20,000 nucleotides of DNA from an uncultured virus (IMG/VR IMGVR_UViG_3300021197_001482). Lineage: Duplodnaviria > Heunggongvirae > Uroviricota > Caudoviricetes. The notes beneath the pieces are model-generated. The model was not told the origin of the DNA. It searched no databases and saw only the letters and a list, made by a program, of their open reading frames with translations. Positions 1-20,000 of the stretch are shown here, in pieces (position 1 is the first letter of the stretch; each line of letters opens with the position of its first letter). The position numbers and the translations under genes were made by a program. The stretch lies in the IMG/VR virus record IMGVR_UViG_3300021197_001482. One strand, written 5' to 3'.

Positions 1-3000
1 TTGGGTTACTGATACCATCGTATGATGATTTACTGATACCACTACTTACAGCATAAGAACCATCATCGTCAGCATCCGACCAAATAGGACCATCAAAGCC
101 GTAGTCTCGTGGATAGTCCCATGTAGATGAGACATAAGCGTAACCATCAAGGCGGCTTACCAATGGCCCACCACGACTACCACTCGGCCAAAAGTGATTG
201 AGCATACTCTTGGTGGCTGTATCACTGCTGTCCGACTGTCCACCTTGCATAAGCCCTGTACCGATAGTGGTATCAATTGTTTGAGCAGTTTGAGGTGTCC
301 CATCAGCACCAGTGTATATGATAGAACCTACAGCGATTTGAGGTGGTAGTGTATCAAATACTACAATGGTAGTATCTCCTTCTGTAACAGTACCATTAAC
401 TTGATACATACGCCCATCAACAAAAATGTAACTTTCATCCGATATAATCTCTCCACCGTTTGTAGTAATCGTATTACCAGTGTGTGATACAACTTGACGA
501 GTGTGTGAACCATCAGCGGCGAGGTCAGCGGTCTTGTAGTATCGCAGTGAATGATTCCCACTCGCCATAGTTGTCAACGGTGTACCCTTGACATTGACAC
601 ACCCTGTTAATGTTGTACCACCAGCACCACCACCGGTATAAGTGAATATTTCTTCTTCACTACCACTGTTGACATACACTGTATTTGTACCACTTGTAGG
701 CCATCCGGCCATTATAGCACCTGTGGCAGTTACAGTTGTACTACTCACACTCGCTGATGTAGCAGTGTAGTATGTTGATTGCGCTTCGGTAGGCGGCATG
801 GCTGTCTTCATTCGCAAAGCAAACGGCCCCATGCTGGCATAGTAAGTAGCGTCATGGTAGTGGACAGTTTCAAAATGTTCCGGCATACTGTTGAGTGGTT
901 TTTGATTGATGGCTCGGTCAGTCAGTGGGTTCAACCATGTTCGACTCGCATCGCTGTAGAAAGTGTGAGGGCGACCAAGGTTTGGATGCCATAGACAAAG
1001 GAAAGCATCAGCCATATGTAGGCTGTTGGTATCACGACTACCCGCTAAGGTTTGAGGTAGAGTTTGAGTGATAATGCTTGTTTCACTGTCACTTAAAATC
1101 GCATTTGCTGGTCGGAAATCATACGCACGAGATAAGCGTAATTTTGTTCCTACTGTTAAATTACTTGTGAAAGTAGAGTTGGCTACTATAGTAAATTGCT
1201 TAGGCTTATTCATCAATGATGAATCATAACCACTGCGTTCAGTGTAAGTATGTGTTCTTCGTGTGCCTGTAGCATCGGTGTATTCAAGCACCATACCATA
1301 GTAAGGTTGCTTAGGGAATCCTCGTGCATCATCTACTGTAATAACTGTGGATGCTATACTCACTACAGTACATACAGGTGTGAGACTGATGTTCTCAAGT
1401 ATCTCGGAGTATAAGTCGGGATAGAAACTTGGATAGCCAGCAAGCGTGATTTGAGAAGCAATCGAGCCGCTACTTGCTCTCAAGAACTCATAGTAGTTGT
1501 CAAGACGATGCCAAGACAAATGATTGAAACGGTCAGCATCAGCGTTATCCGGGCCAACCTTGTGAACAATAGACCACCACGGTATATTGGTTGTGAAGCC
1601 GGGCGTAGCATCTACGAACATACTTGGGTAATACGGTAGAGAGCGACGAACAAAGGCCGGTGATTCTGTGCTTTGTACACCAAGTGGGTTGTATAGCATC
1701 AACGGTGGAATATTAGTGAATTGACTACCGTAATCGGGGTCATGGTCTATCATCAATTCATTAACAAATATTTCACAGCCTCTTACATCAGCCATAGTAG
1801 CATTAGCCAGTACAAGTGCATAAGCACCATACCTGCTGTCGGGTTCACGAATACCTACAACCAGTGCGACTTGTTGGCTTGTTAATTCACTTACACCACC
1901 ATTAGGAATATCATTAGCAGGGCCATTTGCATGATAACCAATAAACTGCGAACTATGCATATTTGGTTGTATGATGATTTGATACGCACCAACCTCGGCA
2001 GGGTCGGGGAAATGTTCTTTCAGTGTGTAAGTACCTGCGGCTTCAAGAACGATTGTGTGTCCACCCTTTGAGTTTGTAACACCTGCATCACCTTCGGAAG
2101 CAAGTACACCGTAACCATCGTTACGCAACTTGGTTTCAAACATCAATGAGAAACCGCCACCGTGTATGTCACTTGGGCCGCTTGGTGTAGCGGTTAATGA
2201 ACCAAAGACCAACAACGGGTCATAGGTAGGGAATGTAGTAGGTGCGCTTGTAATTAAATCATCCATATCAAAACGCTCATCAAGAATAGTAAACTCATCC
2301 GATTGTAAAGTGGCCGCACGACAGGCTCGGTGTTTGTCGTATAATCCTTGATAAGCAGGATGCGCCCAATGTCCGGGTAGCATAGCCATTGTTGCGTTGA
2401 CAAAATGATGACCCATACGAGGTATAGGTGCAGGAGTTAATTGCGGCTTTTTGTATATTGAATAACCAGTCATGGCTTCTTCGGCTGTCACGGAGTAATT
2501 GACATAGTGAGTATGTGCCATGTCGGGGCTGTTACCACTTACTTCTGCATGGTCCCGAATACGGCGTGAACCATAGAATCGGGTGCTACCGGCAGGAATG
2601 TAATACGATGGGACTACTTTCAGTGCTGTAATACTACTAAGAACGAGTTTGTTGAATACTTCATCGCCTACGCAACCTGTAAATGTAGAACCGCTGATAC
2701 CAGTAAAGGATGCTACACCACCTTCATCGGTGGTAGGATTATACAAGCGAAGGAATCTGCGCTCTCCGACTCGCTCTTTGTTACCGAATGTAGAATCATA
2801 AACAGCGGAGTTTACACTTGTATTCACTGTTAAAGTAGTACCGACAAAAGACACACCTGTAAGTTCGTGATTAACAACACCACCGCTGTGTGAATAAATG
2901 ACAGGGTGCTTGTGTGTGTTGGTGTTACCCATTTTTGTTACATGGAAAAACAAGGTACGGTCGTGTAATTCGTATGCCGTTTCAAGGGGTGCATTTCCAG

Positions 3001-6000
3001 TGGAACTTTGCCAGCCCGACATTGTACTTTCGGGGTTATCAGTGCCTTGTTTGAGATGTTCCCAATTATGGTCGCTGTAAGTAGGGCCGAGGTTTGGACT
3101 CACTAAACTGTTATCGAACATATGTTCTACAGTGGATTTAGTCATCATACCACCTGTACCCATTGTTTCAGTTTGATAGGCTTGGAGTCTATCGAAGCCG
3201 GAACGAATAAGTAAGTTACCGGGTATAGAATCGGGGTTTGGTAAGCGTATTTTCATGTTCGGCTCAACACCGCTACCGGAAATTGCAGGGGCTAATCCTT
3301 GCGCTGAACGGTTGGATAGTTGAGTAAACGCTCTTATGATTGTTCCAAACGGAGAGCCACCTTCTACTGTATGCTCTTGCCCTGTGTCATCTACTACTGT
3401 AATACTTTCAAACTGAATCTCTTCATTTGGTATTTCAAGAATGTTACGCAACAAATCGGGGTGGCGAGATGCCATCTGTGGGTGTGATAACTCTTGGGCT
3501 TGGATGATAGGGAACATTGCACTGTTGGTAGATTCAAAGGTAAAGCGGTTATTACCGTACAGTTTTTCACCAGTGGTGTAAGCGTTACCACCTGCTACAC
3601 GAGTAACAAACGGTACAGCACCCAATCCTCGTGCGTTTGGTGCAGGGAGGCTAAGGTTGCCACCATCCATTCGCTTCCACACTACATGCTCAACACTAAA
3701 GTTTTGAGCAGGGGTACGCTGTGATAACTTGTAACCGTTGGTGTCACCAAGCCAGTAATCATCATTAGTGTAATCGTAATTATCAATTTCAGCATCAGTG
3801 CTTGATAACTCAAGTTCTTTTGTAATATTACGAGTCACATTGGTGACATCCTCAAGTAACATTGTACCGGGGCTAATATCAGTGTCAAAGAACAAATCAC
3901 CTGTAACAGCAAAACAAGGTTCTGCGTTGTAGAGATTCGTGTCTTGGTCGCCAGTTAATGCTGTGTGTAAGACATAAGCGGCGTTTGGTACATCAGCAGT
4001 AGGTGTTGCTGTTCCTGTAGCAATCAAGGCTTCTACATTTGGACCAGCGTTGGCGGGGGCTATGTATCGTTCAGCATCATGGAATCGTTCATCCCATCGT
4101 GTTGTACCAGCGAAGGTGATAGCAGTAGCGGCGGCTACACCGGCACGAGTTTTTGATACTACAGAAAGCCAATCACCGGTTGCTGTTATACCATCACGGT
4201 CAGTCTTGGCTACAAGTGCCAACTCACTTTCGTTACTGATAACAAGCATTGCTCGACTGAATACACCCTGTTGATGGTGAAGTTTTTTATCAAGAGTATA
4301 TGATGTATTGGAATCTGTTGCTTCTAATATATGAGGCGGTTTAGCACTCATTATGTCCTTTGTACTTTCAACATCAGTGAAATCATAATTATCATACCAA
4401 GTGTCACCACCGACTAATCCGATGTTCCAAGTGTACGGTGTGGTAAGCGCAACATCATATGACACATTAGATGCTTCTTGTCCGTTGACTCTTGGGCTTG
4501 CTTCGGGGCTGTTATACATTGGATATGAACTTGGTAGGTGTCCTAATGTATTCATACACGAGGCTGATGAACCATATGGGGTGAAGCCCATTTTAGGATG
4601 CCAAGCACCTTTTCCAGCACCATATCCTTCTGTACCTACCTTGAGAGAGTTAAGGTATGAATAACGCTCTCCCGCCCATCCTACAGCCCCTACAGGGCGT
4701 GTACGGTCAATAGCATCTACCAAACCACCAAAGTGAACTTGAGTCATGTGGTTACGAGATGTTTCATTTTTGTTATTGAAACGGTGTACGCCCGCCTTCG
4801 ACCATACATAGATTTTACTTGGAGAAGGGTGAACTAAACCACCACCGCCGGGGTCATATCCCGGTGTCGGGAAAGTCATAGTTGCACTTTGACATTTGTT
4901 ATGCCAAGTGGTTATGTCTTCTAAAAGAGGTAATCCACTTATTCTATTCGGTGCGAGGTAAAACTTGATTTTGTATGTACCGCTATCATTCCATATTTCT
5001 CGACTGTGATAACATCCAAAAGAGGATTTTATGTATCTATCTGCTTCTGCAACATCTGTTTCGGTGTAATCTCTTCCACCGGTATCGGTTCTTATCCAAC
5101 CACACGCTGGTATTTGTTCTAATTCTGCTTGCGTAGCACCTGTAATAGTTGCTACAATATGAACTTCGGAATTATCAACATCTCCGGTTGTATCACCGAA
5201 TGCTTCACCACTGAATACTTTACCGAGTAAATCATCAGCGAGATTGTTATATGAAACAAAGTTGGTTTCAATCCAACCGTATCGGTCTTGACGCATTGCG
5301 TTACCCATAGACGGTAGGAATGTGCCACCCATTGCTTTAAGCGCACCTTTACCGGGATTTTCATTGATGGCTTGACCGATGATAGTCGCCAGTTCCTCAC
5401 CGTTTTGACATCGTGTGCCATCTACAATGATATAATCACTGTCAAAGTTAAGTGCAGTTTCGCTGTTCGCACCTTCAAGAATAGTTTTAGCCATAACACC
5501 CGAAACACGGAATGCTGTAGCATTAACTTGGTTCCATGATTCTAAGGCGTAACGATAGTTACCGTTGGGGTTTGGTGCGTTAAAGGATATTTGATTATCG
5601 AGCCATGAACCACCCGGATGATACCCACCATCCATGTGAAATGTCATGTCTGCACTCATAGCAATACCGTAATATGCGACAGCACTATGTTTGTAAGGAT
5701 GGGCTTTGTAATAATCAGCGGCGTTATCACTTGTTAATTTACCAGCGGTTGGGTTGGTAAATACTTCACCGTAATGAGAACCGTGTTCCGGTCGCTGTTG
5801 TAAATAACCTACATTCGGAATACCTTGCGGTGGCGACCAGTTTAGCGTAGTACGCCAATGGTAACGCTGTCGTGCGGTTTGATATGCTGTATCGGGCGGG
5901 CCATACAAATTATCACTGTTTGTAATTTCATTTGGTAAGAACTTACTATGAGGTACTTTACTCCAAGTGTTACCAGCAGTGACGACATATCCGGGGTGTG

Positions 6001-9000
6001 GTTCGACAGCCGCATTGGAGTTGTCGTCTTCGGTGAATGGGAACGCTTGACCCGGCCCATAGACAAGGTAAGTAGTTTTATTTTCAATGTAATTAAATGT
6101 TAAAGTTCCGTTTGACACCGAGCCACCAGTAGTAGCAACCGATAACTCAAATGTGGTAGCATTGGTAATGGATGATACTGTAGCCCCATCGGGAATACCT
6201 GTACCTGTGACCGTCATTCCTACAACAAGTTGTGTTGTAGAATCCATTGTAATCGTTGGGTCATTGTTGTAATCACATGTAGCATCAACAATAGGCTGAC
6301 TGTCGTGATAGCGAGCAGTAGGATGAGCGAAGCGAAGCACCAACGGTACAGGCTGTTGGCGAACAATACCTGCGGCGTATCTCGCTCGTACATCACCTGC
6401 CGCCGCCGCATTGAGTAAAGCAAAGTCGGCATCCAAGTTGCCGCCCCGTAGGTCGGGTGATAGAATACTGTCTTTGTTCGACACTGGGCTGTTGATTGAC
6501 CCTCGGTGCTGATTGAGTAGGGCTGTGCCGGGGAAGAAAGCGAGTAGTGCGTTACAATCCACCATAGCGAATGACCCGCTAATTTCATTGGCGTTTTGAA
6601 TACCCGCTGTTCCTGTTGGCCCGCCCGAATACGGGTGAGTGTAGAATGGTGAGTAATCATTCTGTGTTCCATCGTTAATATCGAGAGTAACACCAGTGAA
6701 CCCGCCGCCAAAGTAAAGCGGTACACTGTGGTCTACGCTGTCTCTTGCACCACGGAACAACACGATAGGTTCGCTATCAACACTACCATAAGAACGATAA
6801 CCGCATATTGCATCACGCTCAAAACCGGGTAAGTTTGATTGAGCAAAACGAATAAGAACAAAGTCATCACCTACATCGCCATTAAACGCTGTTCGCCATA
6901 ATCCATTACCATGTCCATCAGTATATGTTAAAGAAGTATGCGATACACTACTCTTAATTGATTTAACTTCACCTCTTGCTATACCATCAGCAGTAGCATA
7001 TGAAAAAATAATCTCTTCACCAAATGAGCCTTCTTTAGCAAGACTGTTAATTGAATCTGCTTCTTGTCCGGCGGGAATTATAGCATGTGCTATTTTATTG
7101 GTTTTTGAAACAAACTCATTTTCTATATTACCGCCAGTTGAGTCATAGTTATTAAACAATAATATTGGATTGTTTAACGATGGTAGAATATGGTCGCCAC
7201 TAATGGATGTGTAATTCTCACCTTTGAGATTTCTTCGCCAAGAATTAACCGATACAGGAGTATTGGATGAATCTACCAGTACTGGGGTGGCTGTGTTTGC
7301 ATTAAAACCTCGACCTTTACTGCGTATTTGTAAGACAGTGTATGGTAAATAACCTACATCCATTCGACGGTGTGCATCGAGTTCAGCATCGCTATACGGT
7401 TTGTTAATAGGGTCAGTAGCAACAAGAGTCCAACCTGCTGTTGTTTCATGTAAAGTTGTATATTCACCATATTCAAGGTGGGCGGCTTGAATACCCCAGT
7501 CTTTATGCAATGTAGCCTCAAACATTTGAGAAAGCGGTAATGTGTTTCTTGATGGAGTATGCGCTCGTATTTTGATAGCGTCGGGGGCTACACCCCATTG
7601 CCCGTATGTTCTACCATCGGCGGCATACATTCCTCGGCAATCAAAGTTGAGTAAACGGTTTGGGTCTTCATGGTTAATCGCCGCCGCAGTAACAGCCGCC
7701 ATCAATTCATCAGTAACAAGTGTAGTCCAGTTAATTCGGGGTGAAAGTAATACACGCAATTGTACACTGTCAGTTGGATTTGCTTTATGAGTATCGGTTA
7801 CTGTCCCACTGTTTACAAAGTGAGAAGAAATGAATGTATCACCAGCCACTCCATAGAAAATATGCGTTCCGTCGTTATCGTTTTGTGTACGGTGTGTGTA
7901 AGAAACGCTATGCCCGACAATACCTTTCCTTGTAGTGCCAGTAAAAGTATCATTGATTTGAAGAAGACCGTTTGTTTTCGGAAATCCGAGATAACCGAGG
8001 ACATCGGGGTGATTACCCATTACCCCATCACCAACAGTGCCGGTATCAAATGGCTCATGTAACACTACTGTTAATGTCGTTCCCGACCAAGTAACACTTG
8101 CGTCTATACCAACAGAAGGTGCGGGTACACCATTCCAGCGATTACCACGGTATGACGCTTCTGTAAGGTCGCCTGTTGTATCAATGCGACCGGTAACATC
8201 ACCAAAACCAAGCATGTGATTACCAATGGTAAATCCTCCTTGCCCTACATCTCGGTCATCAAAATATACACATATTTCATTGTCAAGAGTAGGTGGTAAT
8301 ATAGTATTATCATTACTAAAATTAGTTCCCATATCTCGATAAATGTAGCGTACACCGTAATTATTACCACGGTGGTCTTCAAACTGGAATCCGTATAGTT
8401 GTCCATCACCTATATTTTCAACTTGGGAATCTGTAACATGGTCCGAATAGTCTGTTATTGATGTAGATGCTGTATTACCCGTAGTAATAGCATTGGAGTA
8501 TCGAGTATCAAAATCAGTATTACCCCTTTCACCAAGACCCCATACACCCGCATCGGGGGCAAAACCGGGAATACCAGCGGCTACCATACCACCAAAGTTG
8601 ATTCTACCTACGGCTTGACTACCAGTTCGTAGCCCCTCAACAAGTGTTTTTGATGGACTTTGCGACTCAAAAGACTCATCATTGATTGTATTAGCATTCA
8701 TTCCGCTACCATTAAACGCTGAAATACTTCTTTTTGTATTTCTGCCTTGTGTGGTACTGGACAAATCATTTTGCCTTACATCAAAGTCACCGTTACTTAC
8801 AAAATTATCATCAGTGTCTTCTTGCGTAACATACTCCCGAAGCGTAGTAATCGGTGCAAATGGTCTACCATGTTTGTTGATAGGCATAGGGGCGGGGTGC
8901 ATATTCTCACCACTGGTTTCGTCGGGTTGACACCAAAAGTTTCGGAATCGCCCACCGTGACCGATGAGGAATTGTGGTTTGTATTGAGATTGACCCTTAC

Positions 9001-12000: not shown

Positions 12001-15000
12001 CGGTGTGATTAGTACTTACTACGATTTGAGTAATAGTGGTTGATGATACATGCTCGTTACTATTTGCGTTAAACCCGTATGCCGAGTGTGCGTTACGGTC
12101 GCTTACAGCGATGTCGTTTGCCCGACGACCAACAGGAGTAGGATTCCATGAGTGTGCGGTATAGGTAGCATCAAGGTGTATTTTCATACTGTTATCCGGT
12201 CCGGGGAAAATACCAGTAGGTGCGTGGTCGAAAAACTGCTTAGGGAAAAGAGGAACTTCAACCATTGCACGAGTGCTGGCGTATTGCGTACCCAATTGAT
12301 AATCATGATTCACTGTGTCCATACTTTGGAACATTCTATCGTTTACTGTACTACCGTCTTCACAAAGGTTGTCATCACCAAAGTGAGGGTCGTTGAATAG
12401 TTTTACACTTATTTCATATTCATTTTCTGTGGCATTTGCAATGATACCAACACCGTTTAACCATTCATGGAATGATGCATAGGCTGTACCGTTTGCATCT
12501 AAAAACGACCTTTGCTCTTGTATAGTTGGCCCGCCGCTTGTATCAACGGTGAATACAAAACCACTACCAGTTTTTTCGCTGTAAGCGGCACTTGCCCCGT
12601 CTTCAAGGTAAATACGACCTACCTTTGGAAAACAGTATGTACCCCATGAGGCCATGTCTGTAGAGAGGTTGTTAAGCGGTTGCACAGACATGTATATCCT
12701 ATCGGTATCAGTATTGACACTCACAGCCTGTACAGCGCAACTACGGCGGGTTGAGCCGGGTAATCGCATTAGCGGGCTTGGGTCATAGGTAGGTTTGGTG
12801 TTAATCGCACCTTGTCCCGGCCCGCCAAGTGTCACAGTGACTACAGGGGCGTTTGGCTCAATCTCTTTGACGATGTGTGAATCCGGTGAGCCGCTACCGG
12901 TGATGTTGACATTTTGATTAGCGAGTCCTTCTGCGATACCCGTCGCCAATACAGTGACAGTTTTTTCATTTGTACCGGGGTCTTCGTCTTCTTTTATTGA
13001 GCGAATACGAGTGCGGCTCATGAGGTACAGTAACGATGCGATACTTGGTGAGTTACCTTCTGTATGATTTGTACGCATTTTCGATAACTGATTTGTTCGG
13101 GTTCTGTCGGATGGTTGAACGAATATAATACCGGAATACTCGTGTGTATTGTAAACGACATTATCTATGATGTCAAACATTTCAAAGTTATTACTCGCAT
13201 CAGTAGTTGAACCTTCATCGAATACACCATCACCAGTATTGGTTACAGCCGCCGGTTTAATAGACTGTAAACCTATTTCAGTCATATTTTTAACAGAATT
13301 ATCAGCATTTGGTTCTATACATAATTTATGATATGCTGAATCATGTACACCGTTATTATGTGATGCTGTGAGGTATTGAGGTGTTGTATTACCGTCTGTC
13401 GTAGCATTACTCGGTGGTGTATAATTGACAGGACAGCGGCTAAAATCTACTTCACTGTCAAGTTCATACCCTCCGGTATTATCACCGATTAACGAATGTT
13501 CTGTCTCTAAATGATGTGTAGTGGTCGTTTGACTGTTACCTGTCATAATGAGGCCACCGGGTGCAAACAATGTGGTGTCTTTTGTAGCATCGGCTAAGTC
13601 TGCTTCGATGACATCAAGCACTGTAGTAGAGCCGGTAAGAACATAATTACCACTTGGTACAGTCTTTTCAATCATTAAGCAAGGTGTTGTTTTACCCATA
13701 CTCGCCCCTGTTAAATCAATTGAATTGTAGTGTATCTCAACATATGGTGCAAGGCTATGTGTGGTTTGAAGAGTAGGAACTTTGAGTAAAGCAATACGAC
13801 TCACACTTTCCGGTCGCAAATGATACAACCGTGTATCATCATTGATGTCACCTTCAAACTCCGGTACTGGACCTTTTAGCATAAATGGGCGGTAATCAAA
13901 GTTTGTACCACCAATGGCAATGGCTTGCTCTTTACTTTCTGCTAAACCATTTGACACTACAAAAGTTGCAGGTGTCGAATTGATAAAATTAGCCACTGTC
14001 ACCTGTGTACTTTCTTCATAGAAGTCGGATAGAGCGTTCATTGCAAACAAATCAGCAATACCCTTTGTATTACTGTCATATCCCATTTCAACAACATCTG
14101 CCGTTCCACCCATGATTTGGTCTATTGAGAGGTATGCGGGTTGAGGATAGCGGCGCATATACTCATGACCTGTGATATGAGAATATCTATGTCGCCCACT
14201 GTGTCCTACTTGATACAAAACATCCAATGTAGAAGGCCAAGAAACAGCAAACGGGTTGCTTGGTGAATTATCAGTAGTAGCCATTTGAGTAGAGTACACT
14301 AATGCGTGTTGCGAAAAGTTACTCTCATCAATCACCATTTGACCCGTTTTATCAAATATTTGGCTACCGTAGTGTGGAGGTTGATACGGCTTACCTGTNN
14401 NNNNNNNNNNNNNNNNNNNNNNNNNNNNNNNNNNNNNNNNNNNNNNNNNNNNNNNNNNNNNNNNNNNNNNNNNNNNNNNNNNNNNNNNNNNNNNNNNNAT
14501 AGCCTCGATAGCCCCTCTAAACTCTCCACCTTTACCGCCGATGTACACATGTGCTGTTGAGTCTGCTATTCTACTTTCAATGTCAATTTCTTGCGTTGCT
14601 ACAACATGTCCGTTGACATACAAAAAAACAGAACCCGCTGTAACCCCTGCTACTACATGATACAATCCACGGTGTTTGAAATTGAGATTTGTAGCATCGT
14701 TGTAAGCGGTATTGTCTTTCAAGTATCTATTGTAGGTATCATGTATTCCACCTACTTCTTGCGGTGGGTAAACCACTCCATCCCATCGTGTTGATGTAGC
14801 CTTGGCTGTGCTTAAGGAAACAGGATGCATACCACTTTGTGTTTTTAATTGCACAGTAAACTTAGCAGGGCCGGGTGTATCTACTGTGCCAAACTCAAGA
14901 GTGAATTGTTCATCACGGTGTGCGACTATACCACCACAGTCCGGTACTACCCACGCTTCGATAACAAAACTATCATCCATGATAGAGTTGATATGTGTAA

Positions 15001-15139
15001 ACTCGTCACCGCCTCTACTTGTTTTCCCAAGTATATCTCGTGCTGGTCCTACGCTGGTAAAGTTACCTTGAGGGATAAGTATTGAATCAGTAACACCATC
15101 AAAAAAGAAAGCGTTGCTTGTTCTACCTATTCCTACCAT
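1..15139 (-). CDS. Giant virion protein (about 5,000 aa in window, 3'-truncated by the window edge): putative tail tip/central fibre/adhesin with N-terminal LamG-like domain
   Basis: I translated it by hand. ATG at 15139 is preceded by GAGGTG. MVGIGRTSNAFFFDGVTDSILIPQG... is open for 213 codons up to the N gap. The frame is then free of stops from 14398 down to 2 (4,799 codons, ending ...SSYDGISNP). Its absence from the ORF track is probably because no stop lies inside the window. It sits directly after the TMP and Dit-like genes, the usual tail tip position. Continuity across the gap is inferred. Confidence 0.9.
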   Translation of the reverse strand, partial: MVGIGRTSNAFFFDGVTDSILIPQGNFTSVGPARDILGKTSRGGDEFTHINSIMDDSFVIEAWVVPDCGGIVAHRDEQFTLEFGTVDTPGPAKFTVQLKTQSGMHPVSLSTAKATSTRWDGVVYPPQEVGGIHDTYNRYLKDNTAYNDATNLNFKHRGLYHVVAGVTAGSVFLYVNGHVVATQEIDIESRIADSTAHVYIGGKGGEFRGAIEAXXXXXXXXXXXXXXXXXXXXXXXXXXXXXXXXXXTGKPYQPPHYGSQIFDKTGQMVIDESNFSQHALVYSTQMATTDNSPSNPFAVSWPSTLDVLYQVGHSGRHRYSHITGHEYMRRYPQPAYLSIDQIMGGTADVVEMGYDSNTKGIADLFAMNALSDFYEESTQVTVANFINSTPATFVVSNGLAESKEQAIAIGGTNFDYRPFMLKGPVPEFEGDINDDTRLYHLRPESVSRIALLKVPTLQTTHSLAPYVEIHYNSIDLTGASMGKTTPCLMIEKTVPSGNYVLTGSTTVLDVIEADLADATKDTTLFAPGGLIMTGNSQTTTTHHLETEHSLIGDNTGGYELDSEVDFSRCPVNYTPPSNATTDGNTTPQYLTASHNNGVHDSAYHKLCIEPNADNSVKNMTEIGLQSIKPAAVTNTGDGVFDEGSTTDASNNFEMFDIIDNVVYNTHEYSGIIFVQPSDRTRTNQLSKMRTNHTEGNSPSIASLLYLMSRTRIRSIKEDEDPGTNEKTVTVLATGIAEGLANQNVNITGSGSPDSHIVKEIEPNAPVVTVTLGGPGQGAINTKPTYDPSPLMRLPGSTRRSCAVQAVSVNTDTDRIYMSVQPLNNLSTDMASWGTYCFPKVGRIYLEDGASAAYSEKTGSGFVFTVDTSGGPTIQEQRSFLDANGTAYASFHEWLNGVGIIANATENEYEISVKLFNDPHFGDDNLCEDGSTVNDRMFQSMDTVNHDYQLGTQYASTRAMVEVPLFPKQFFDHAPTGIFPGPDNSMKIHLDATYTAHSWNPTPVGRRANDIAVSDRNAHSAYGFNANSNEHVSSTTITQIVVSTNHTDIYVSHPKIFPTAESAANEHRNMKDVTRYRRVFLSNNQWGVYQNDPATDGYIRIPKNVSGGFTGGFSEDFFADATVGALVYVAGGYRNETLIPIASDESTPSSDLENRSPYYHDPANMQTQGGNLDYGLRQYVSAVEFKEGPLTNPHAPRIQSKNASSTILEVNKVTAGLDNNQSVYTFTVEDASTFPDVPFSKIGGYETDSNNPAFGNGDMIFVAEVLTDTPIEMMFLGNITSTSETANQFVCAAPSSFSTTNFKGKTIRLKKACRALYSLTDPANAYINEFSATTFKPSVGGEQWTFTAAGAVGATTLSIAPATATLIPQANTVGINLRPGDELFIEDVSDNNFVKYVGKVAFIESPYAGSGHATNTVITLDGTNATTIASGDPLRVSFGTVTENDPDAILNRTWLYPYAQGGLRNGDTIWMNMTMNNPHAVEGLFAKSRGVLSEGQVWTGFNGGKGALATRPRDSIPLENFLIGDSCLETANNFVQHVNKTIELNYESMGLSSSQAPTVAYLDPYLATKGHARVLMFDVAHDREFIAFHDLHMQVQSSAATPHIGFGRHVVTADGIVDIDRYLVQQNGGAPHYFTTQIDVANGFPSENPYMRRTQQSKFIESAYVHNISGNTSEDVMGTNAGGENPISNFLNHDSYAIPGQGKTKLALIGNSFTEACDTDHAATGTDTHVFGGNVRIIRLNGTIGTRMSKFSVGMTVSGTGIASGSKIIEIDSNAGLLYLDKDTTATNSNQTLTFITTNNSYFMGKGHGHYVHTGFMNEGTSSSFTIADSTLPRVQPAVASPYWADRLHALSRKSLGATQTLAGALKKSRLVNNPDTFTLRDASTMMDTPDGTRAISAFLCLKGIRSQSLLLSNHEESRLQHLDHWSKMDFVRRLTIDFGEVGIKEGVTDIEAAAREIVRLINQGGAKNALTTGAMNADTGSIHDPAPWWFADEAFDSQDRGSHMGYMRAHLGRVVEDLDGNTGHSIVIHSTIPGASGRNFCTWLDNSKGQSQYKPQFLIGHGGRFRNFWCQPDETSGENMHPAPMPINKHGRPFAPITTLREYVTQEDTDDNFVSNGDFDVRQNDLSSTTQGRNTKRSISAFNGSGMNANTINDESFESQSPSKTLVEGLRTGSQAVGRINFGGMVAAGIPGFAPDAGVWGLGERGNTDFDTRYSNAITTGNTASTSITDYSDHVTDSQVENIGDGQLYGFQFEDHRGNNYGVRYIYRDMGTNFSNDNTILPPTLDNEICVYFDDRDVGQGGFTIGNHMLGFGDVTGRIDTTGDLTEASYRGNRWNGVPAPSVGIDASVTWSGTTLTVVLHEPFDTGTVGDGVMGNHPDVLGYLGFPKTNGLLQINDTFTGTTRKGIVGHSVSYTHRTQNDNDGTHIFYGVAGDTFISSHFVNSGTVTDTHKANPTDSVQLRVLLSPRINWTTLVTDELMAAVTAAAINHEDPNRLLNFDCRGMYAADGRTYGQWGVAPDAIKIRAHTPSRNTLPLSQMFEATLHKDWGIQAAHLEYGEYTTLHETTAGWTLVATDPINKPYSDAELDAHRRMDVGYLPYTVLQIRSKGRGFNANTATPVLVDSSNTPVSVNSWRRNLKGENYTSISGDHILPSLNNPILLFNNYDSTGGNIENEFVSKTNKIAHAIIPAGQEADSINSLAKEGSFGEEIIFSYATADGIARGEVKSIKSSVSHTSLTYTDGHGNGLWRTAFNGDVGDDFVLIRFAQSNLPGFERDAICGYRSYGSVDSEPIVLFRGARDSVDHSVPLYFGGGFTGVTLDINDGTQNDYSPFYTHPYSGGPTGTAGIQNANEISGSFAMVDCNALLAFFPGTALLNQHRGSINSPVSNKDSILSPDLRGGNLDADFALLNAAAAGDVRARYAAGIVRQQPVPLVLRFAHPTARYHDSQPIVDATCDYNNDPTITMDSTTQLVVGMTVTGTGIPDGATVSSITNATTFELSVATTGGSVSNGTLTFNYIENKTTYLVYGPGQAFPFTEDDNSNAAVEPHPGYVVTAGNTWSKVPHSKFLPNEITNSDNLYGPPDTAYQTARQRYHWRTTLNWSPPQGIPNVGYLQQRPEHGSHYGEVFTNPTAGKLTSDNAADYYKAHPYKHSAVAYYGIAMSADMTFHMDGGYHPGGSWLDNQISFNAPNPNGNYRYALESWNQVNATAFRVSGVMAKTILEGANSETALNFDSDYIIVDGTRCQNGEELATIIGQAINENPGKGALKAMGGTFLPSMGNAMRQDRYGWIETNFVSYNNLADDLLGKVFSGEAFGDTTGDVDNSEVHIVATITGATQAELEQIPACGWIRTDTGGRDYTETDVAEADRYIKSSFGCYHSREIWNDSGTYKIKFYLAPNRISGLPLLEDITTWHNKCQSATMTFPTPGYDPGGGGLVHPSPSKIYVWSKAGVHRFNNKNETSRNHMTQVHFGGLVDAIDRTRPVGAVGWAGERYSYLNSLKVGTEGYGAGKGAWHPKMGFTPYGSSASCMNTLGHLPSSYPMYNSPEASPRVNGQEASNVSYDVALTTPYTWNIGLVGGDTWYDNYDFTDVESTKDIMSAKPPHILEATDSNTSYTLDKKLHHQQGVFSRAMLVISNESELALVAKTDRDGITATGDWLSVVSKTRAGVAAATAITFAGTTRWDERFHDAERYIAPANAGPNVEALIATGTATPTADVPNAAYVLHTALTGDQDTNLYNAEPCFAVTGDLFFDTDISPGTMLLEDVTNVTRNITKELELSSTDAEIDNYDYTNDDYWLGDTNGYKLSQRTPAQNFSVEHVVWKRMDGGNLSLPAPNARGLGAVPFVTRVAGGNAYTTGEKLYGNNRFTFESTNSAMFPIIQAQELSHPQMASRHPDLLRNILEIPNEEIQFESITVVDDTGQEHTVEGGSPFGTIIRAFTQLSNRSAQGLAPAISGSGVEPNMKIRLPNPDSIPGNLLIRSGFDRLQAYQTETMGTGGMMTKSTVEHMFDNSLVSPNLGPTYSDHNWEHLKQGTDNPESTMSGWQSSTGNAPLETAYELHDRTLFFHVTKMGNTNTHKHPVIYSHSGGVVNHELTGVSFVGTTLTVNTSVNSAVYDSTFGNKERVGERRFLRLYNPTTDEGGVASFTGISGSTFTGCVGDEVFNKLVLSSITALKVVPSYYIPAGSTRFYGSRRIRDHAEVSGNSPDMAHTHYVNYSVTAEEAMTGYSIYKKPQLTPAPIPRMGHHFVNATMAMLPGHWAHPAYQGLYDKHRACRAATLQSDEFTILDERFDMDDLITSAPTTFPTYDPLLVFGSLTATPSGPSDIHGGGFSLMFETKLRNDGYGVLASEGDAGVTNSKGGHTIVLEAAGTYTLKEHFPDPAEVGAYQIIIQPNMHSSQFIGYHANGPANDIPNGGVSELTSQQVALVVGIREPDSRYGAYALVLANATMADVRGCEIFVNELMIDHDPDYGSQFTNIPPLMLYNPLGVQSTESPAFVRRSLPYYPSMFVDATPGFTTNIPWWSIVHKVGPDNADADRFNHLSWHRLDNYYEFLRASSGSIASQITLAGYPSFYPDLYSEILENISLTPVCTVVSIASTVITVDDARGFPKQPYYGMVLEYTDATGTRRTHTYTERSGYDSSLMNKPKQFTIVANSTFTSNLTVGTKLRLSRAYDFRPANAILSDSETSIITQTLPQTLAGSRDTNSLHMADAFLCLWHPNLGRPHTFYSDASRTWLNPLTDRAINQKPLNSMPEHFETVHYHDATYYASMGPFALRMKTAMPPTEAQSTYYTATSASVSSTTVTATGAIMAGWPTSGTNTVYVNSGSEEEIFTYTGGGAGGTTLTGCVNVKGTPLTTMASGNHSLRYYKTADLAADGSHTRQVVSHTGNTITTNGGEIISDESYIFVDGRMYQVNGTVTEGDTTIVVFDTLPPQIAVGSIIYTGADGTPQTAQTIDTTIGTGLMQGGQSDSSDTATKSMLNHFWPSGSRGGPLVSRLDGYAYVSSTWDYPRDYGFDGPIWSDADDDGSYAVSSGISKSSYDGISNP
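6095..6286 (-). repeat. Beta-rich module type A, copy 2, inside the giant protein
   Basis: DATCDYNNDPTITMDSTTQLVVGMTVTGTGIPDGATVSSITNATTFELSVATTGGSVSNGTLTF; shares CD...VGMTV[ST]GTGI..G.....I......L...TT....N.TLTF with copy 1. Confidence 0.8.
9758..10006 (-). repeat. Beta-rich module type A, copy 1, inside the giant protein
   Basis: FTEACD...FSVGMTVSGTGIASGSKIIEIDSNAGLLYLDKDTTATNSNQTLTF; clearly similar at protein level to 6095..6286. Confidence 0.8.
14399..14498. other. Assembly/scaffold gap (100 N), true length unknown
   Basis: Exactly 100 consecutive N, a conventional placeholder length. Confidence 0.98.
14499..15110 (-). other. LamG/concanavalin A-like (Laminin_G_3-type) lectin jelly-roll domain at the N-terminus of the giant protein
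   Basis: Characteristic motif order: AFFFDGVTDSI ... SFVIEAWVVP ... LYHVVAGVTAGSVFLYVNGHVVA ... HVYIGG..GEFRGAIEAI. The domain is cut by the gap in its last strand. Confidence 0.8.
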
Positions 15140-15144
15140 AATCA

Positions 15145-15150
15145 CACCTC
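15145..15150 (-). promoter_or_regulatory. Shine-Dalgarno site (GAGGTG) of the giant ORF, overlapping the TGA stop of the upstream gene
   Basis: Minus strand reads TGAGGTGTGATTATG. Confidence 0.75.
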
Positions 15151-16366
15151 ATATGATATGCTCTACAGGAACAAATTGAATGTTAAATTGATAGATAGGC
15201 TCGCCACCCAATTGTACAAAAGTGGCTTTAGTTACCGTACCTTTAATGAATGCTTTATCACCAGTAGCATTTGGATTTACTACTCTTGAAGAAGCATCCT
15301 TGGCTTTGTTTGGGTGCTTTGAATCTATGTCGTGAAACGGACCGGTAGGCATAAAGAAGTTTTTCGCCACATATTTATCACCTGTTGAATTATTAACAGT
15401 TGAATTAAACGGTATTTGAATACCTTTTATGTAATCACCGTATTTTTTGTTTAATTTACTACCACCTGTAAGCACTTGTTGTGCATATTGCGCCCCTGCT
15501 ACTACAGGTACAATAGAACCACCGTCATTGGAATTGTTAAGTGTAGCGTAAAGCGACATCACTTTGTCACCCGCACTCATACTTGTAAACTCCGAAGCAG
15601 TATCAACACCTCCTGTGAAAAACTCCGAAAGTGGTGGTCGGCGGTTTTTAGCCTCCCAAGAAGGTGTGTTGTTACCGTTTACTCTACCCGCTGTATCAAG
15701 AGTAATAACTACAGTGGTGTCTGCTTCATCTGTATTGGTAGAGTCAACTCTTGTAGCCGTAAATCTACTACTAAGAGCATTACTATTTGCACTGCTGTTG
15801 ATTAAATCTCTTAAATATCCAGCAATTTCAACGGCTGTACGCATAGTGCCATCAGCCTGTGCTATCGAAACATGGTATTTTTCACTGCTTAAACCCGTAC
15901 CTAAATCATATCCGTATGTAGTATTGGATTTGATAAAGAAAATTATGTAAGAAGTTCCGTCTTTTGCTTGTATAGTAAGTCGAGGTATGCGTGTATCTGT
16001 AAAAACATCAGCAGTTAATTCTGCCGCCAATGCTGTTAATGTACTACCAACAAACGGTTGATGTATACTGTTTGTTCTACCCGACACAGAATTGTAAACC
16101 CCTTCTGTACCAGTGGTGGAAAAATCAATACTTGCTTTTGCACTTCTACCAAGTTCTACACTTACTAAATCATCATCTGTGATTACACCTTCTAAAAGAA
16201 TAACCGCTTTAGCCATGTTCAAATCAAAAGCAAAACGCTCACCACCCATGTAAGGTATGGTATGCGGATTGATACTACGGTCAACATCCAGTGTAAGCGT
16301 GGTAACATTTAGCGGTATCAATCCGCCGTCTTTACGCACCAATCGAACAGGAATGTTTGTCGGCAT
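15149..16366 (-). CDS. Putative distal tail protein (Dit)/tube initiator-like protein with a large central insertion, 405 aa
   Basis: It lies immediately downstream of the TMP (TGATG overlap). The N-terminal part (LNVTTLTLDVDRSINPHTIP..GERFAFDLNMAKAVILLEGVITDD) and C-terminal part (IKGTVTKATFVQLGGEPIYQFNIQF) show the beta-strand pattern of tube-fold hub proteins. Function is inferred from synteny and pattern. Confidence 0.65.
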   Translation of the reverse strand: MPTNIPVRLVRKDGGLIPLNVTTLTLDVDRSINPHTIPYMGGERFAFDLNMAKAVILLEGVITDDDLVSVELGRSAKASIDFSTTGTEGVYNSVSGRTNSIHQPFVGSTLTALAAELTADVFTDTRIPRLTIQAKDGTSYIIFFIKSNTTYGYDLGTGLSSEKYHVSIAQADGTMRTAVEIAGYLRDLINSSANSNALSSRFTATRVDSTNTDEADTTVVITLDTAGRVNGNNTPSWEAKNRRPPLSEFFTGGVDTASEFTSMSAGDKVMSLYATLNNSNDGGSIVPVVAGAQYAQQVLTGGSKLNKKYGDYIKGIQIPFNSTVNNSTGDKYVAKNFFMPTGPFHDIDSKHPNKAKDASSRVVNPNATGDKAFIKGTVTKATFVQLGGEPIYQFNIQFVPVEHII

Positions 16367-17403
16367 CAGTACCGCCCTCGCATGGTTGAGCCGCCAATAC
16401 TGCGAGCGAGTTCTTGTTGAATCATGTTACCAATCTCTCTCGCTAATGCTCTCTTGTCTGTGCGGTCTGTAATGCCTCCGGCGTTGACGGTGATGTTGTA
16501 TGTACCGCCGCCCATGCCAGCCCCACCGGGGTTGTTGCGTTGGCTTAGGGGAACGACCGCCTCCGGCCCATCCTCACCAATCATAGCGAGTGTAGGCTTG
16601 TTGACGATACCACCCTTGGCTAATTGAGGTATTTGCCAGTCGGACAAATCAACTCCGAATGAATATTCTGTACCGGTAAAGGGGTTGGTTACAGTTTTAT
16701 TGAAGTTGATACCCGCCAATAGGTCGTTAAACAAACCAATGAGAGCGTTGATACCCGTTTTGATACCACTAATAATTGAATCACCGATACCGCTTAACGA
16801 AGCACCGATGTCTTTAGCAAGCCCTTTCCAATAATCGAGAGTTAAAAAATCCGGTATGGTGGGTATTGCATCCCATAAATTACTTAAAACGCCTGTTATA
16901 GTATCTCTAATGCTACCGAATGTAGCGATTGCACTCGACTTAAGACCTGTAATTCTACCTGTCAGTGCTTCCCATTTTGCTATAACAGGGCCAACTACTT
17001 TGTCCATAATGAAGTCTTTAATCGTAGTAAACTTTTCAACAACTGAATCCTTAAGTCCACCAAACCATTCTTTCAACCCATTCCATTTTTCTTGTACAGG
17101 GTCAACTACATTATCGCTAATGAAGTCCTTGATACCCTGCCATTTTTCTTGTATGGGTGCAACTACATTGTCGCTAATGAAATCCTTGATACCTTGCCAC
17201 TTTTCAATGACAGTTTCCTTGAATCCACCCCACCATTCTTTAATGCCGTCGAGTTGCTCTTTGAGTGGCTTGATGAACTTATCATTAACGAATGTTTTGA
17301 GGTCGCTGAACATTTTCTTTGCAATTTGGCCTATACCTTTGAATGCTGGTCCGATGCTGTTTACCATCGTTGACATGGAGGCGAGGGTGGCTAAGAGTGT
17401 CAT
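16366..17403 (-). CDS. Tape measure protein, unusually short (345 aa)
   Basis: It follows the chaperone pair. It has amphipathic helical repeats with periodic W/F (EKWQGIKDFISDNVV) and the typical TMP C-terminal motif IPQLAKGGIVNKPTLAMIGEDGPEAVVPL followed by TYNITVN. ATGA overlap with the upstream stop and GGGAGG RBS. Confidence 0.85.
   Translation of the reverse strand: MTLLATLASMSTMVNSIGPAFKGIGQIAKKMFSDLKTFVNDKFIKPLKEQLDGIKEWWGGFKETVIEKWQGIKDFISDNVVAPIQEKWQGIKDFISDNVVDPVQEKWNGLKEWFGGLKDSVVEKFTTIKDFIMDKVVGPVIAKWEALTGRITGLKSSAIATFGSIRDTITGVLSNLWDAIPTIPDFLTLDYWKGLAKDIGASLSGIGDSIISGIKTGINALIGLFNDLLAGINFNKTVTNPFTGTEYSFGVDLSDWQIPQLAKGGIVNKPTLAMIGEDGPEAVVPLSQRNNPGGAGMGGGTYNITVNAGGITDRTDKRALAREIGNMIQQELARSIGGSTMRGRY
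17083..17196. repeat. Tandem 57-bp (19-codon) duplication within the tape measure gene
   Basis: 17083-17139 vs 17140-17196: 50/57 nt identical, encoding QGIKDFISDNVV[AD]P[IV]QEKW. Degenerate copies flank it. Confidence 0.92.
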
Positions 17404-17684
17404 TCAGTACCCTCCCAATCTAAAAACGAGTAATCCAAACTTACCATCTCCCTGTCACCCGCCTTCGCCTGTTGTTTGCTATGTTCGGTTTTCTTTTTCT
17501 CTTCTTCGGTCGCAACCATCGCCCAAACGAGTGATTGCTTGAATAACCGAGGGGGCATTGAGTAAACTTCAAGCAAGGATATTGAATAATGTTTAGCGAT
17601 TGTATAAGCCCAAAGTTCTACTTGAGTTGTTAAATCACTTTCACTGTCAATTTTATCCTTACGAAGAAACTTCTCGACCCTCAC
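17400..17684 (-). CDS. Tail assembly chaperone C-terminal extension (lambda gpT-like ORF), probably expressed as a frameshift fusion of about 218 aa
   Basis: It lies between the chaperone and the TMP, in the -1 frame relative to the chaperone, and is open upstream to 17726. The GTG start has no clear RBS. AYTIAKHYSISLLEVYSMPPRLF resembles the helical pattern of G-T extensions. Confidence 0.75.
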   Translation of the reverse strand: MRVEKFLRKDKIDSESDLTTQVELWAYTIAKHYSISLLEVYSMPPRLFKQSLVWAMVATEEEKKKTEHSKQQAKAGDREMVSLDYSFLDWEGTE

Positions 17685-17707
17685 TCGGTCGGCTTCGTAA
17701 ACCCCCC
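17675..17707 (-). promoter_or_regulatory. Candidate programmed -1 ribosomal frameshift signal (GGGGGGTTT plus downstream hairpin)
   Basis: mRNA: CAA GGG GGG UUU (G6U3 at 17707-17699), 7-nt spacer, then CGACC-GAGUGAG-GGUCG stem-loop (17691-17675). It lies in the overlap of the two chaperone frames. Confidence 0.6.
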
Positions 17708-18055
17708 TTGCAAAGCCTCCGCCATCTCATTAGGTTGCGGTAGCACTTTGGAGAGTTGCTCACCGACATAACCCTTGAGAGACAGCATTTCTTCTGTAGT
17801 CAAGGATGGATTAGTTTTAGTGACCCAATGGGTGAATGCGAATTGCCAGTAGCCTTTCAAGTTCAATGCTACATCGCCGTTTGATACAAGGAACATTTCT
17901 TGTGCGGCGGCTTGGATGTCAAGGAATGATATTTCACGAACCCATACTTCAATTACGGCACTTTCGTCATCGGGGTCAACCCGAATCGTGTGCTTGGTAA
18001 CATCGTCATTCTTCAATAATAGGCTCTTGTTCATCACTACTTGTTTCTTGCTCAT
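17681..18055 (-). CDS. Tail assembly chaperone (lambda gpG-like), 124 aa
   Basis: Size and position between tail tube and TMP fit. IEVWVREISFLDIQAAAQ matches the chaperone strand-turn-helix pattern. RBS GGAAGTGA at 18068-18061. Confidence 0.75.
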   Translation of the reverse strand: MSKKQVVMNKSLLLKNDDVTKHTIRVDPDDESAVIEVWVREISFLDIQAAAQEMFLVSNGDVALNLKGYWQFAFTHWVTKTNPSLTTEEMLSLKGYVGEQLSKVLPQPNEMAEALQGGFTKPTE

Positions 18056-18518
18056 CTATTTCACTTCCATTGGGTGCGGCCACCTCTTCGGTGGGGGCAT
18101 CCGGCGTTTCTTCGGGGGCTACCTCTTCGGTAGGGCCGTCAGTCACACCCTCGTCGTCTTGGTTGAGTCGCAAAACTATCTCGGCTTTAGTGCCATAAAC
18201 AGGCAAACCTCGTTCTTTACATAGTTTTCGCAATTCAGCGACAGTAAGGGAATCGTATTGTACTTCGTCAACGACGAAGGGGGATGGTGCTTCTTCTTGC
18301 ACCAGTGGGTTAATTTCTTCTTCGACCACTTCAACGGGGTTGTTGAGGATGTCAGCGGCAAGTGCATGGATAGTATGATTATTCATTAAACCGATAATCA
18401 ATTCTTTGTCTTGAATAGTGTCAAGAAAAAATTGTAATTCAAGACCATTTGCTTGACACACCCACTTGGCATATCCAACTGGTCCGAGGCGGCGATACTT
18501 TTGTAGTGATTGCTTCAT
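18006..18518 (-). CDS. SAP (helix-extension-helix) domain protein with acidic low-complexity flanks, 170 aa
   Basis: YDSLTVAELRKLCKERGLPVYGTKAEIVLRL (18257-18165) matches the SAP consensus LTV.EL+..L..RGL...G.K..L+.RL. The E/D/P-rich tail contains PTEEVA twice. RBS GAGGTGA. Confidence 0.88.
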   Translation of the reverse strand: MKQSLQKYRRLGPVGYAKWVCQANGLELQFFLDTIQDKELIIGLMNNHTIHALAADILNNPVEVVEEEINPLVQEEAPSPFVVDEVQYDSLTVAELRKLCKERGLPVYGTKAEIVLRLNQDDEGVTDGPTEEVAPEETPDAPTEEVAAPNGSEIDEQETSSDEQEPIIEE

Positions 18519-18522
18519 ATTT

Positions 18523-18529
18523 TCACCTC
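18523..18529 (-). promoter_or_regulatory. Shine-Dalgarno site GAGGTGA of the SAP protein gene, overlapping the tail tube stop
   Basis: Minus strand reads TGAGGTGAAAATATG. Confidence 0.8.
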
Positions 18530-20000
18530 AATACTTCGGCACTGCGTCACTTGCTAAAACCTTGATTGATTTTGGCATAATCTTGAGTGTTGATTTAACC
18601 ACACCCTTGTCTTCGGGGATTTGTAACGGTGCTTCGATAATGTAGTAATCATCAATCAATAACACCATTTTTTCACCAGTAAGGTTCTTTTCAAATATGA
18701 TACGGATTTGGTTGGTAGTTGAATTACCCTCACCATTGACACTAAACTCGGTTCCTGTACGCATTTTATGATAGAAAAGTGGGTCATCAACTGCAATCTC
18801 CATAGTCATTTCATACGATGTTTGACCTTCAACCATGAGGTTTGCGTTTCTTGCACCAGCAAATGGCACTTGGTCGCCATAAGCAGAAGTTGATTGATAA
18901 TGCCCGTTGATAGTATGGAATGCTTGCATACCTGTTTGTCCGGTTAATGAAAAGTTCATGACTTGAGCAACTTGTTGTCCAGCCAATGTGATACTACCAT
19001 TGTAAAACATAAACGGTTTCTGTGTTCCCAATGCAATGCCGGAGTTAATACGACCTTGCGCTGTATTAGCGGTATCGTCAAACATACGGTGAGAAGCGTA
19101 GCGAGTAATTGGTGTTCCCTCTAAACGACCAGTATCGGTGTAGCAAAGAGCCGCATTGAAGTTGACTGAAAGGCGTAGTGCCGCATCGTTGTCGGTTGTC
19201 ATGGTAAAGTCTGTAACCTTACAGCCACGGAAAACACGAGTCAATTCTTTTGTATCTCCAACTCCACCATCAACAGTGGTTTCATCCGAATCCATATCTC
19301 TTCGGCGTTGAGATACTTCAAGAGCGAATGAAGGTTGAGTAGTGCGTGAGAAAAGTAATTTTTCAACTGGATTAGTAATGACACCCGCTGATGTTACTAT
19401 AACAGGTAAAGAACCCGTAGTATCGGGGTCACGAACTTCTATATCAGTACCGTTTGCATGAGGGTAAAGCAACGGTTCATCCAAGTATAGTCTGTTGTCA
19501 ACTGATGAAATACCAATGACTCTTCGTACTTCATGCGGTTTAGCGTTGTCAAACTCAAAGTCGGTAAGTGTACCATCCCATGTACCACCATCGGGTTCAT
19601 GGTCGCTTACAATAGGTACGAGAGGTAATTCATCACGGATTTCAATATAATCATTCACCGCAATGCCCGTTTTACTCGTTACAACGATATGTGATTGTCC
19701 AGCAAAAGACTCCGCAGAAAGAGTAGTTGCTACACTACCACCATCGGGTGATGAAATCAATTCATGTCCAAGACAGTATTTCAACCATCGAGCAGAATGC
19801 ATAGCGACTTCAAATGAGCCACCTTCATTGGTAAGTTTGCCGGGAACTTGTACACTTACATCTCGGCCAAGCCCTACAACATGAAATCGCTTCAAGTCCA
19901 CTTTAGTTTCCGGTAGAGTAAGAGCCGTAGCAATACCCAAGAACTGGTCTGTTTTGACTGATTCACCTGCTGTCGTGTGTGTCATATCTACATTCATTGG
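18528..20000 (-). CDS. Major tail tube protein (non-contractile, Phage_tube_2-like two-domain type) with an inserted beta domain; probably 5'-truncated (at least 489 aa)
   Basis: Tube motifs: EGGSFEVAMHSARWLKYCLG; PSFALEV...RVFRGCKVTDFTMT...LRLSVNF; PFMFYNGSITLAGQQVAQVMNFSLTG...EGQTSYEMTMEI. The frame is open to the window edge, so the Met at 19997 may be internal. Confidence 0.8.
   Translation of the reverse strand, partial: PMNVDMTHTTAGESVKTDQFLGIATALTLPETKVDLKRFHVVGLGRDVSVQVPGKLTNEGGSFEVAMHSARWLKYCLGHELISSPDGGSVATTLSAESFAGQSHIVVTSKTGIAVNDYIEIRDELPLVPIVSDHEPDGGTWDGTLTDFEFDNAKPHEVRRVIGISSVDNRLYLDEPLLYPHANGTDIEVRDPDTTGSLPVIVTSAGVITNPVEKLLFSRTTQPSFALEVSQRRRDMDSDETTVDGGVGDTKELTRVFRGCKVTDFTMTTDNDAALRLSVNFNAALCYTDTGRLEGTPITRYASHRMFDDTANTAQGRINSGIALGTQKPFMFYNGSITLAGQQVAQVMNFSLTGQTGMQAFHTINGHYQSTSAYGDQVPFAGARNANLMVEGQTSYEMTMEIAVDDPLFYHKMRTGTEFSVNGEGNSTTNQIRIIFEKNLTGEKMVLLIDDYYIIEAPLQIPEDKGVVKSTLKIMPKSIKVLASDAVPKY

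Follow-up and report, generated by a model that had tools for sequence, protein, structure and literature searches.

The 20,000-nt stretch of uncultured-virus DNA analysed here (IMG/VR record IMGVR_UViG_3300021197_001482; hereafter, the window) represents the tail module of a tailed virus, a group-A-like magrovirus, whose hosts are probably marine archaea not yet in culture. Throughout positions 1..20000, it lacks GATC, AGCT, CTAG, ACGT, CGCG, YCWGR, GCWGC and CWGAG, as well as GGACG, GGAGC, CTAAC and about 25 more 6-mers. This absence is larger than first noted, and a known mechanism accounts for it in broad terms: the words were probably removed under selection imposed by the Type II restriction systems of a host pan-repertoire that is patchy from genome to genome.

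Indeed, GATC, AGCT, CTAG, ACGT and CGCG each had zero copies in the 19,900 called bases, and the remaining 11 palindromic 4-mers were all present, with 16 to 92 copies each. When synonymous codons were shuffled within the seven genes (300 replicates), the expected counts were 59.4, 65.6, 31.7, 57.5 and 34.0, respectively, and the lowest counts in any shuffle were 43, 47, 19, 41 and 23. The original prediction, that these five palindromes are missing and that other palindromic 4-mers occur, was thus borne out, although its estimate of about 70 copies each was too high for CTAG and it had missed most of the pattern. Ten 5-mers were also at zero (CCWGG, GCWGC, CCAGA, CCTGA, TCAGA, CTCAG, CAGAG, GGACG, GGAGC and CTAAC), and AAGAT was found once versus 46 expected. 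YCWGR, which comprises CCWGG, CCAGA, CCTGA and TCAGA, had 0 copies versus 97 expected. The 6-mers RAATTY, CTGVAG, TGRYCA, GGYRCC, RTCGAY and GDGCHC were absent versus 18 to 36 expected each, and the C-free words AAATTT, ATTAAT and TTATAA were likewise at zero.

These absences were visible in codon choice. Aspartate before a codon starting with C was always GAC (56 out of 56), as originally observed, versus 268 GAT and 107 GAC elsewhere. Moreover, CCA and CCT were never used for proline before GG or GA (62 cases), and GCA and GCT were never used for alanine before GC (34 cases).

A search of IMG/VR with the tail tube protein returned 211 related stretches; the top 80 served as the relatives, and relatives G001 to G005 were used as stand-ins for the full genome. 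The nearest records, G001 and G002 (77,150 bp), were 94-96% identical to the window. In G002, with purged words defined as minimal words at no more than 12% of expectation, five 4-mers, 11 5-mers and 51 6-mers were purged, and the core words had 0 copies versus 128-260 expected.

The purged words matched known restriction sites, as catalogued in Biopython's copy of REBASE. Of 574 catalogued sites with an expectation of at least 6 in G002, 115 had an observed-to-expected ratio (O/E) of 0.1 or less, many of them nested on shorter words. Among non-palindromic 6-mers, with nested words removed, commercial-enzyme sites were purged in 8 out of 22 cases versus 22 out of 1,806 other words (odds ratio 46, p = 5e-10), and some of these 22 belong to degenerate known sites. 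The cleanest test was provided by interrupted palindromes: 14 of the 26 known sites were purged in G002, versus 8 of the 496 others (odds ratio 71, p = 2e-15), with similar counts in G003 (12/26 versus 9/540) and G005 (11/26 versus 15/532). The sites of BstXI and MvaI were at zero in G002, versus 19 and 79 expected, and the purged list included those of BsaI, BsmBI and SapI. Asymmetric bipartite words were purged in 2 out of 9,926 cases. Two such words, CAAN4GTC and GAAN4ATC, were absent from the window (9 and 11 expected) and nearly so from G002 (1 versus 47 and 0 versus 50), and neither was purged in G003 or G005.

The breadth of purging was compared in equal 20-kb slices from eight hand-picked viruses. 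Purged 4-, 5- and 6-mers numbered 5/11/25 in the window, 3/7/23 in HRTV-7, 2/6/28 in HF1, 1/1/20 in HCTV-5, 1/3/14 in T7, 2/7/4 in phi29, 1/6/8 in KHP30, 1/1/4 in N1 and 0/0/7 in Ma-LMM01. Four host slices gave 0/1/11, 0/0/3, 0/1/1 and 3/4/3; 6-mer counts therefore contain noise.

Recently diverged sequences show that purging is ongoing. We counted 708 synonymous differences between the window and one slice of G002. By expectation, 97 of these should generate a member of a set of 13 words, and among all synonymous point changes that could occur, 13.6% would generate one. Against the window background only 12 did so, and none of the words is present in the G002 slice itself; neighbouring changes therefore cancel them.

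Among the 80 relatives (1.33 Mb, 41 clusters), GATC and CCWGG were absent from all 80 loci and AGCT from 77, followed by CGCG (57), ACGT (50), CTAG (49) and TCGA (18). The purged sets varied by clade, as seen on a quick, midpoint-rooted tree of the tube protein that held 68 of 81 rows, with loci below 11 kb excluded. Loci L049 and L018 carried tube genes near the clade of the window and far smaller purged sets, which may reflect a host switch or module exchange. In a distant clade (L066-L080), little was purged besides GATC, AGCT and CCWGG, a pattern that fits a host devoid of CGCG and CTAG systems, such as Thalassarchaeaceae.

The virus was placed by gene content. In a family scan of 92 ORFs (38 from G002 and 54 from G003), G002 carried a terminase, portal, prohead protease, capsid, intact PolB, thermosome, ERCC4 protein and DNA methylase; G003, which is complete at 107,632 bp and has direct repeats at its ends, additionally encoded an SNF2 helicase. 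Across G001-G005, the PolB gene was unsplit and halovirus-related, a head-tail module was present, and replication and morphogenesis modules were oppositely oriented in relatives. The best-ranked phage matches were haloviruses, at 22-25% identity. The thermosome of G002 and G003 was 42-43% identical to that of Poseidoniales, the only archaea compared. Weak LAGLIDADG matches, all below the cut-off, were found in the structural module of three of the five records, and weak ligase matches in two of the five, none of them G001-G003. This content fits group A as described in the accessible text of Philosof et al. (PMC5434244) and the Apasviridae profile (PMC12999244), with PolB, thermosome, SNF2 helicase, opposed modules and a 107.6-kb genome in relatives. 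A group-A-like assignment is therefore suggested by gene content and family profile. The difference is that site avoidance was not found in PMC12999244 or in the accessible text of PMC5434244.

Judging from the virus family, the host would be Poseidoniales, as also inferred in the available part of PMC5434244 and in PMC12999244. The original prediction of an uncultured archaeal host thus remains probable, with Poseidoniales in place of the haloarchaea or Nitrosopumilus that it had cited as precedent. No match emerged when GTDB was scanned with the thermosome of the virus, and homolog lists for the thermosome and viral methylase contained no usable host records.

To describe host chromosomes, a published 16S primer from PMC5471323 (as given in its accessible text) was used to retrieve 115 stretches. 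Flanks were listed for 80 of these, from which we removed the ones below 9 kb and three that bore bacterial titles. Pooled O/E was 0.58 for GATC, 0.49 for AGCT, 0.63 for CGCG, 0.72 for CCWGG, 0.77 for ACGT and 0.88 for CTAG. GCWGC (1.06), YCWGR and CWGAG were undepleted, and CCAGA, CCTGA, TCAGA and RAATTY were at about 1. CGCG and CTAG were at 0.45 and 0.57 in the 19 loci whose titles gave Poseidoniaceae or Poseidonia, including two (L144 and L152) that are our own assignments, with the genus name as a guide, versus 0.89 and 0.96 in eight loci titled Thalassarchaeaceae or Thalassarchaeum. GATC (0.50/0.64), AGCT (0.42/0.45) and CCWGG (0.68/0.57) were low in both families. Depletion of CGCG and CTAG confined to Poseidoniaceae chromosomes would point to a host in that family.

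Published methylomes agreed with the depleted words in part. In the accessible data of Hiraoka et al. (PMC8919816), Euryarchaeota metagenome-assembled genomes (MAGs) carried N4-methylcytosine in 40-64% of CGCG sites, with GATC and AGCT methylated at 14-48% and 15-42%, and GTAC, GTWAC, GTNAC and GAAAC at 67-90%. GATC methylation is weak evidence, because low GATC calls recur in many other MAGs of that source. Seong et al. 2022 also described CGCG and GGTAG marks in these archaea, in the part of the paper available (PMC9516812). Thus CGCG and, weakly, GATC and AGCT were both marked in hosts and purged in the virus, but the host-methylated GTWAC, GTNAC, GTAC, GAAAC and GGTAG were not avoided; methylation alone therefore does not drive avoidance.

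The hosts possess two widespread orphan methylases together with rare, varied restriction cassettes. N6_N4 methylases were found in 93 of 151 genomes, about 76 of these being one conserved orphan beside phosphoglycerate kinase (PGK; L221:1255-2208, L220, L231-L258; mostly in genomes of 1.8-2.2 Mb). This N4-type enzyme is probably the M.ThaI-like CGCG enzyme of published tables; it is split by a frameshift in G007, and an adjacent 255-aa gene matched archaeal clusters only, with no nuclease signal. The 418-aa methylase of G008 was ruled out as a core enzyme (six strong matches in 101 genomes). Eco57I-type methylases occurred in 119 of 151 genomes, and these PF07669 matches were mostly one conserved orphan adenine methylase of the Alw26I/Eco31I/Esp3I family, of about 660 aa, with an NPPW motif and a housekeeping context (L369:5907-7898 and L370-L378). 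It is a candidate source of the GTWAC, GTNAC or GAAAC marks. C5 methylases were present in 31 of 151 genomes and Dam-type methylases in 26, about half of the latter being weak cross-matches.

Selected neighbours of non-core methylases (92 of 201 ORFs at 24 loci, 50 of 99 at 30 loci, and 39 plus 45 proteins) gave endonuclease matches to BstXI, MvaI/BcnI, BglII, Eco47II, EcoRII-C, HaeIII-like and HNH families, as well as to Type ISP, MmeI-like and McrBC systems, with no endonuclease-type match found at more than two loci. Methylase-partner pairs included a BstXI-like one (L270), an MvaI-like one (L271) and a Dam-DUF7004 one (L309). By family or by fold, a few host genomes held candidates for cutters of CCAN6TGG, CCWGG and CGCG. 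One partner of a C5 methylase, a 233-aa protein without a Pfam match, resembled ThaI-family clusters in language-model features. Its predicted structure (pLDDT 87) suggests that this unannotated protein folds like R.ThaI: it aligned with 3NDH, an entry found in the accessible text of a paper on the ThaI CG/CG cutter, over 169 residues (Z 11.4, rmsd 3.5), and the top six ranks of the fold search were all restriction enzymes. A profile of the family matched no solved structure by sequence. Empty profile searches are weak negatives, because this ThaI-fold partner without a Pfam match had escaped them, and draft genomes may undercount, because many methylase matches sit at contig ends.

These systems could act on the virus as follows. 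A lytic group-A-like magrovirus of Poseidoniales would enter its host with an unprotected genome, and any mutation creating a recognition site would expose that genome to cutting by a host Type II endonuclease. Site-bearing mutants would be purged, with synonymous codons chosen around the forbidden words. Each host genome would hold few complete systems, differing from strain to strain, and a very large virus population would meet all of them, so that even rare ones could hold a site at zero; on population-genetic grounds, rare systems would suffice. The purged list would then be the host pan-repertoire summed over time. The earlier idea that the genome records the restriction-modification repertoire of its host is supported in this form, as a repertoire pooled over strains and not that of one genome. 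The record is also incomplete, the host-methylated words GTWAC, GTNAC, GTAC, GAAAC and GGTAG having no place in it.

Several observations weigh against this explanation. Its weak points are the near-universal loss of GATC, AGCT and CCWGG, for which no common host cutter was found, and the loss of CGCG. Complete systems were rare in hosts (DpnII 0/201, Pfam ThaI 0/201, MvaI/BcnI 2/201, Mrr_cat 5/151), the ThaI-fold protein occurred in 3 of 201 genomes, and specificity cannot be read from a fold or from membership of a Pfam family. No cognate endonuclease for GATC, AGCT, CTAG or ACGT was found in the hosts, and GCWGC and YCWGR likewise had no assigned host enzyme. Sites of two host endonuclease families were unpurged (GGNCC 26 versus 36 expected, GGCC 29 versus 39). 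Moreover, all 11 archaeal rows in the accessible part of PMC9516812 listed orphan methylases only, and each Euryarchaeota row examined in PMC8919816 listed zero restriction endonucleases. Finally, a widespread orphan CGCG methylase should shield viral progeny and weaken selection.

The most serious alternative is that an order-wide, non-canonical host system lies behind GATC, AGCT, CCWGG and perhaps CGCG, with patchy restriction accounting for the long tail only. We regard this as unlikely. The system might be a core nuclease that has gone unrecognised, or a nuclease of repair or replication that orphan methylation directs to its sites; alternatively, being methylated could itself be costly. 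The absence of GATC and CCWGG from 80 of 80 loci and of AGCT from 77 is what such a system would predict, as is the depletion of these three words in both host families, and neither a common cutter nor a common C5 (31/151) or Dam (26/151) methylase was found. T7 likewise lacks GATC and CCWGG, and pelagiphages are depleted for GANTC (accessible text of PMC9516812). However, the strongly methylated host words GTWAC, GTNAC, GTAC, GAAAC and GGTAG are not avoided, Mrr_cat is rare (5/151), and DndC was found in 3 of 101 host genomes, which leaves phosphorothioate (Dnd) defence as a common cause unsupported; restriction enzymes can also escape profile searches, as the ThaI-fold protein did. It is similarly doubtful, yet conceivable, that an order-wide defence or DNA-marking system for GATC, AGCT and CCWGG coexists with specificities new to the catalogue, such as those for YCWGR, CAGAG, GGACG and others. 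On the same tentative footing, CTAAC, AAGAT, CAAN4GTC, GAAN4ATC, GGAN5TCC, TCGNCGA and GACN7GTC might represent further new specificities.

A mutational or repair bias shared with the host, through 5-methylcytosine deamination or very-short-patch repair and with no selection, is highly improbable. The same core words are partly depleted in hosts, but the virus has 0 of 128-260 expected copies and hosts keep about half. Equal depletion in the host chromosome, which the original prediction had named as the sign of such a bias, was not seen (host O/E 0.49-0.88, virus 0), and mild host depletion beside a viral zero therefore argues against it. Furthermore, C-free words and interrupted palindromes are purged too, purging tracks the catalogue of known cut sites, and GCWGC, YCWGR and CWGAG are undepleted in hosts. 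Recoded or synthetic DNA, or site loss during library preparation or assembly, is hardly credible: the purged words read like the catalogue of an enzyme supplier (BsaI, BsmBI, SapI) and the window has an N gap, but natural relatives from many separate metagenomes, one of them the complete 107.6-kb genome, show the pattern with clade-specific differences. We reject both, given that words lacking C and interrupted palindromes are purged and that the relatives are natural.

Site avoidance also has precedents in other viruses. According to the available text of PMC7230728, HF1-group haloviruses lack GATC, CTAG and 21 6-mer palindromes, HRTV-7 also lacks AGCT, and the authors attribute this avoidance to purifying selection from diverse host defences. 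These are also tailed archaeal viruses with palindrome avoidance of similar breadth, whereas the window additionally purges ACGT, CGCG, YCWGR and numerous sites that are asymmetric or interrupted, and its putative host is uncultured and seemingly poor in restriction genes. Seong et al. reported, in the part of the paper available, pelagiphages depleted for GANTC, the target of a host methylase (PMC9516812). These are likewise marine viruses avoiding a host-methylated word, but one word is concerned there and dozens in the window, most of which were not seen methylated in the accessible host data. Site avoidance is a long-known strategy of prokaryotic viruses, as surveyed by Rusinov et al. 2018, in whose accessible text elimination affects 7.5% of site-genome pairs and Type IIG sites are unavoided (PMC6286503). 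As in the accessible part of that survey, a lytic dsDNA virus has eliminated orthodox Type II sites and left Type I-like bipartite words almost untouched; the window differs in purging the asymmetric CTGGAG, CTGAAG, GAGGAG and CTCAG. The prototypes for these words, BpmI, AcuI, BseRI and BseMII, are Type IIG enzymes, and the host enzymes may differ. For magroviruses, no report of site avoidance was found in the accessible literature, although an earlier mention may exist, and the word 'restriction' does not occur in PMC11706807, PMC10160649 or PMC7962313.

We looked for protection of sites by the viral methylase and saw no sign of it. This enzyme, an amino methylase of the beta class (SPPY), adjoins PolB in G001 and G002 (L093:14588-15304, minus strand) and was not found in G003-G005, and the Dam family PF02086 was absent from all five records. 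Residual copies of purged words shared no sequence context by eye.

All seven genes of the window lie on the minus strand, and no tRNA was found in it. The tail tube gene (18528..20000), whose 5' end lies beyond the window, matched PF18906 (E 4e-10) and had no match among named phages. It is followed by a 170-aa SAP-domain protein (18006..18518; PF02037, E 3e-12) and two small ORFs of 124 and 94 aa (17400..18055), which gave no family match in Pfam and PHROG scans and would, from gene order, occupy the position of the tail assembly chaperones. The tail tape measure protein (16366..17403; PHROG 1535, E 1e-30) contains 57-nt repeats and is unusually short (345 aa), two genes away from a giant ORF; a 405-aa ORF without a family match (15149..16366) lies between them. 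The giant ORF (2..15145, more than 5,048 aa) continues past the window edge, and its frame runs on across the 100 N at 14399-14498 (14399..14498). It is a probable tail-associated protein by position alone, with no Pfam or PHROG match in the two pieces scanned and a counterpart of about 6,100 aa in G002.

Other features were observed in relatives. An HMGL-like metabolic gene at L090:3186-4037, also present in G003, had no match in five host genomes (single query). At L091:3709-9555, an ORF of 1,948 aa lies between portal and prohead protease, and ORFs of 1,932-1,933 aa in G004 and G005 carried the weak ligase match.

Poseidoniales are abundant, uncultured and nearly restriction-free in published annotations, and their viruses imply otherwise. 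The word list makes this gap between restriction-poor host annotation and heavily purged viruses testable, by providing targets for hidden endonucleases and candidate new specificities. It may also serve as a signal for host prediction, with CGCG and CTAG low only in Poseidoniaceae chromosomes, and as a list of sites to omit from any future vector for Poseidoniales. Overall, the window offers a case in which the pooling of defence over a host population can be measured.

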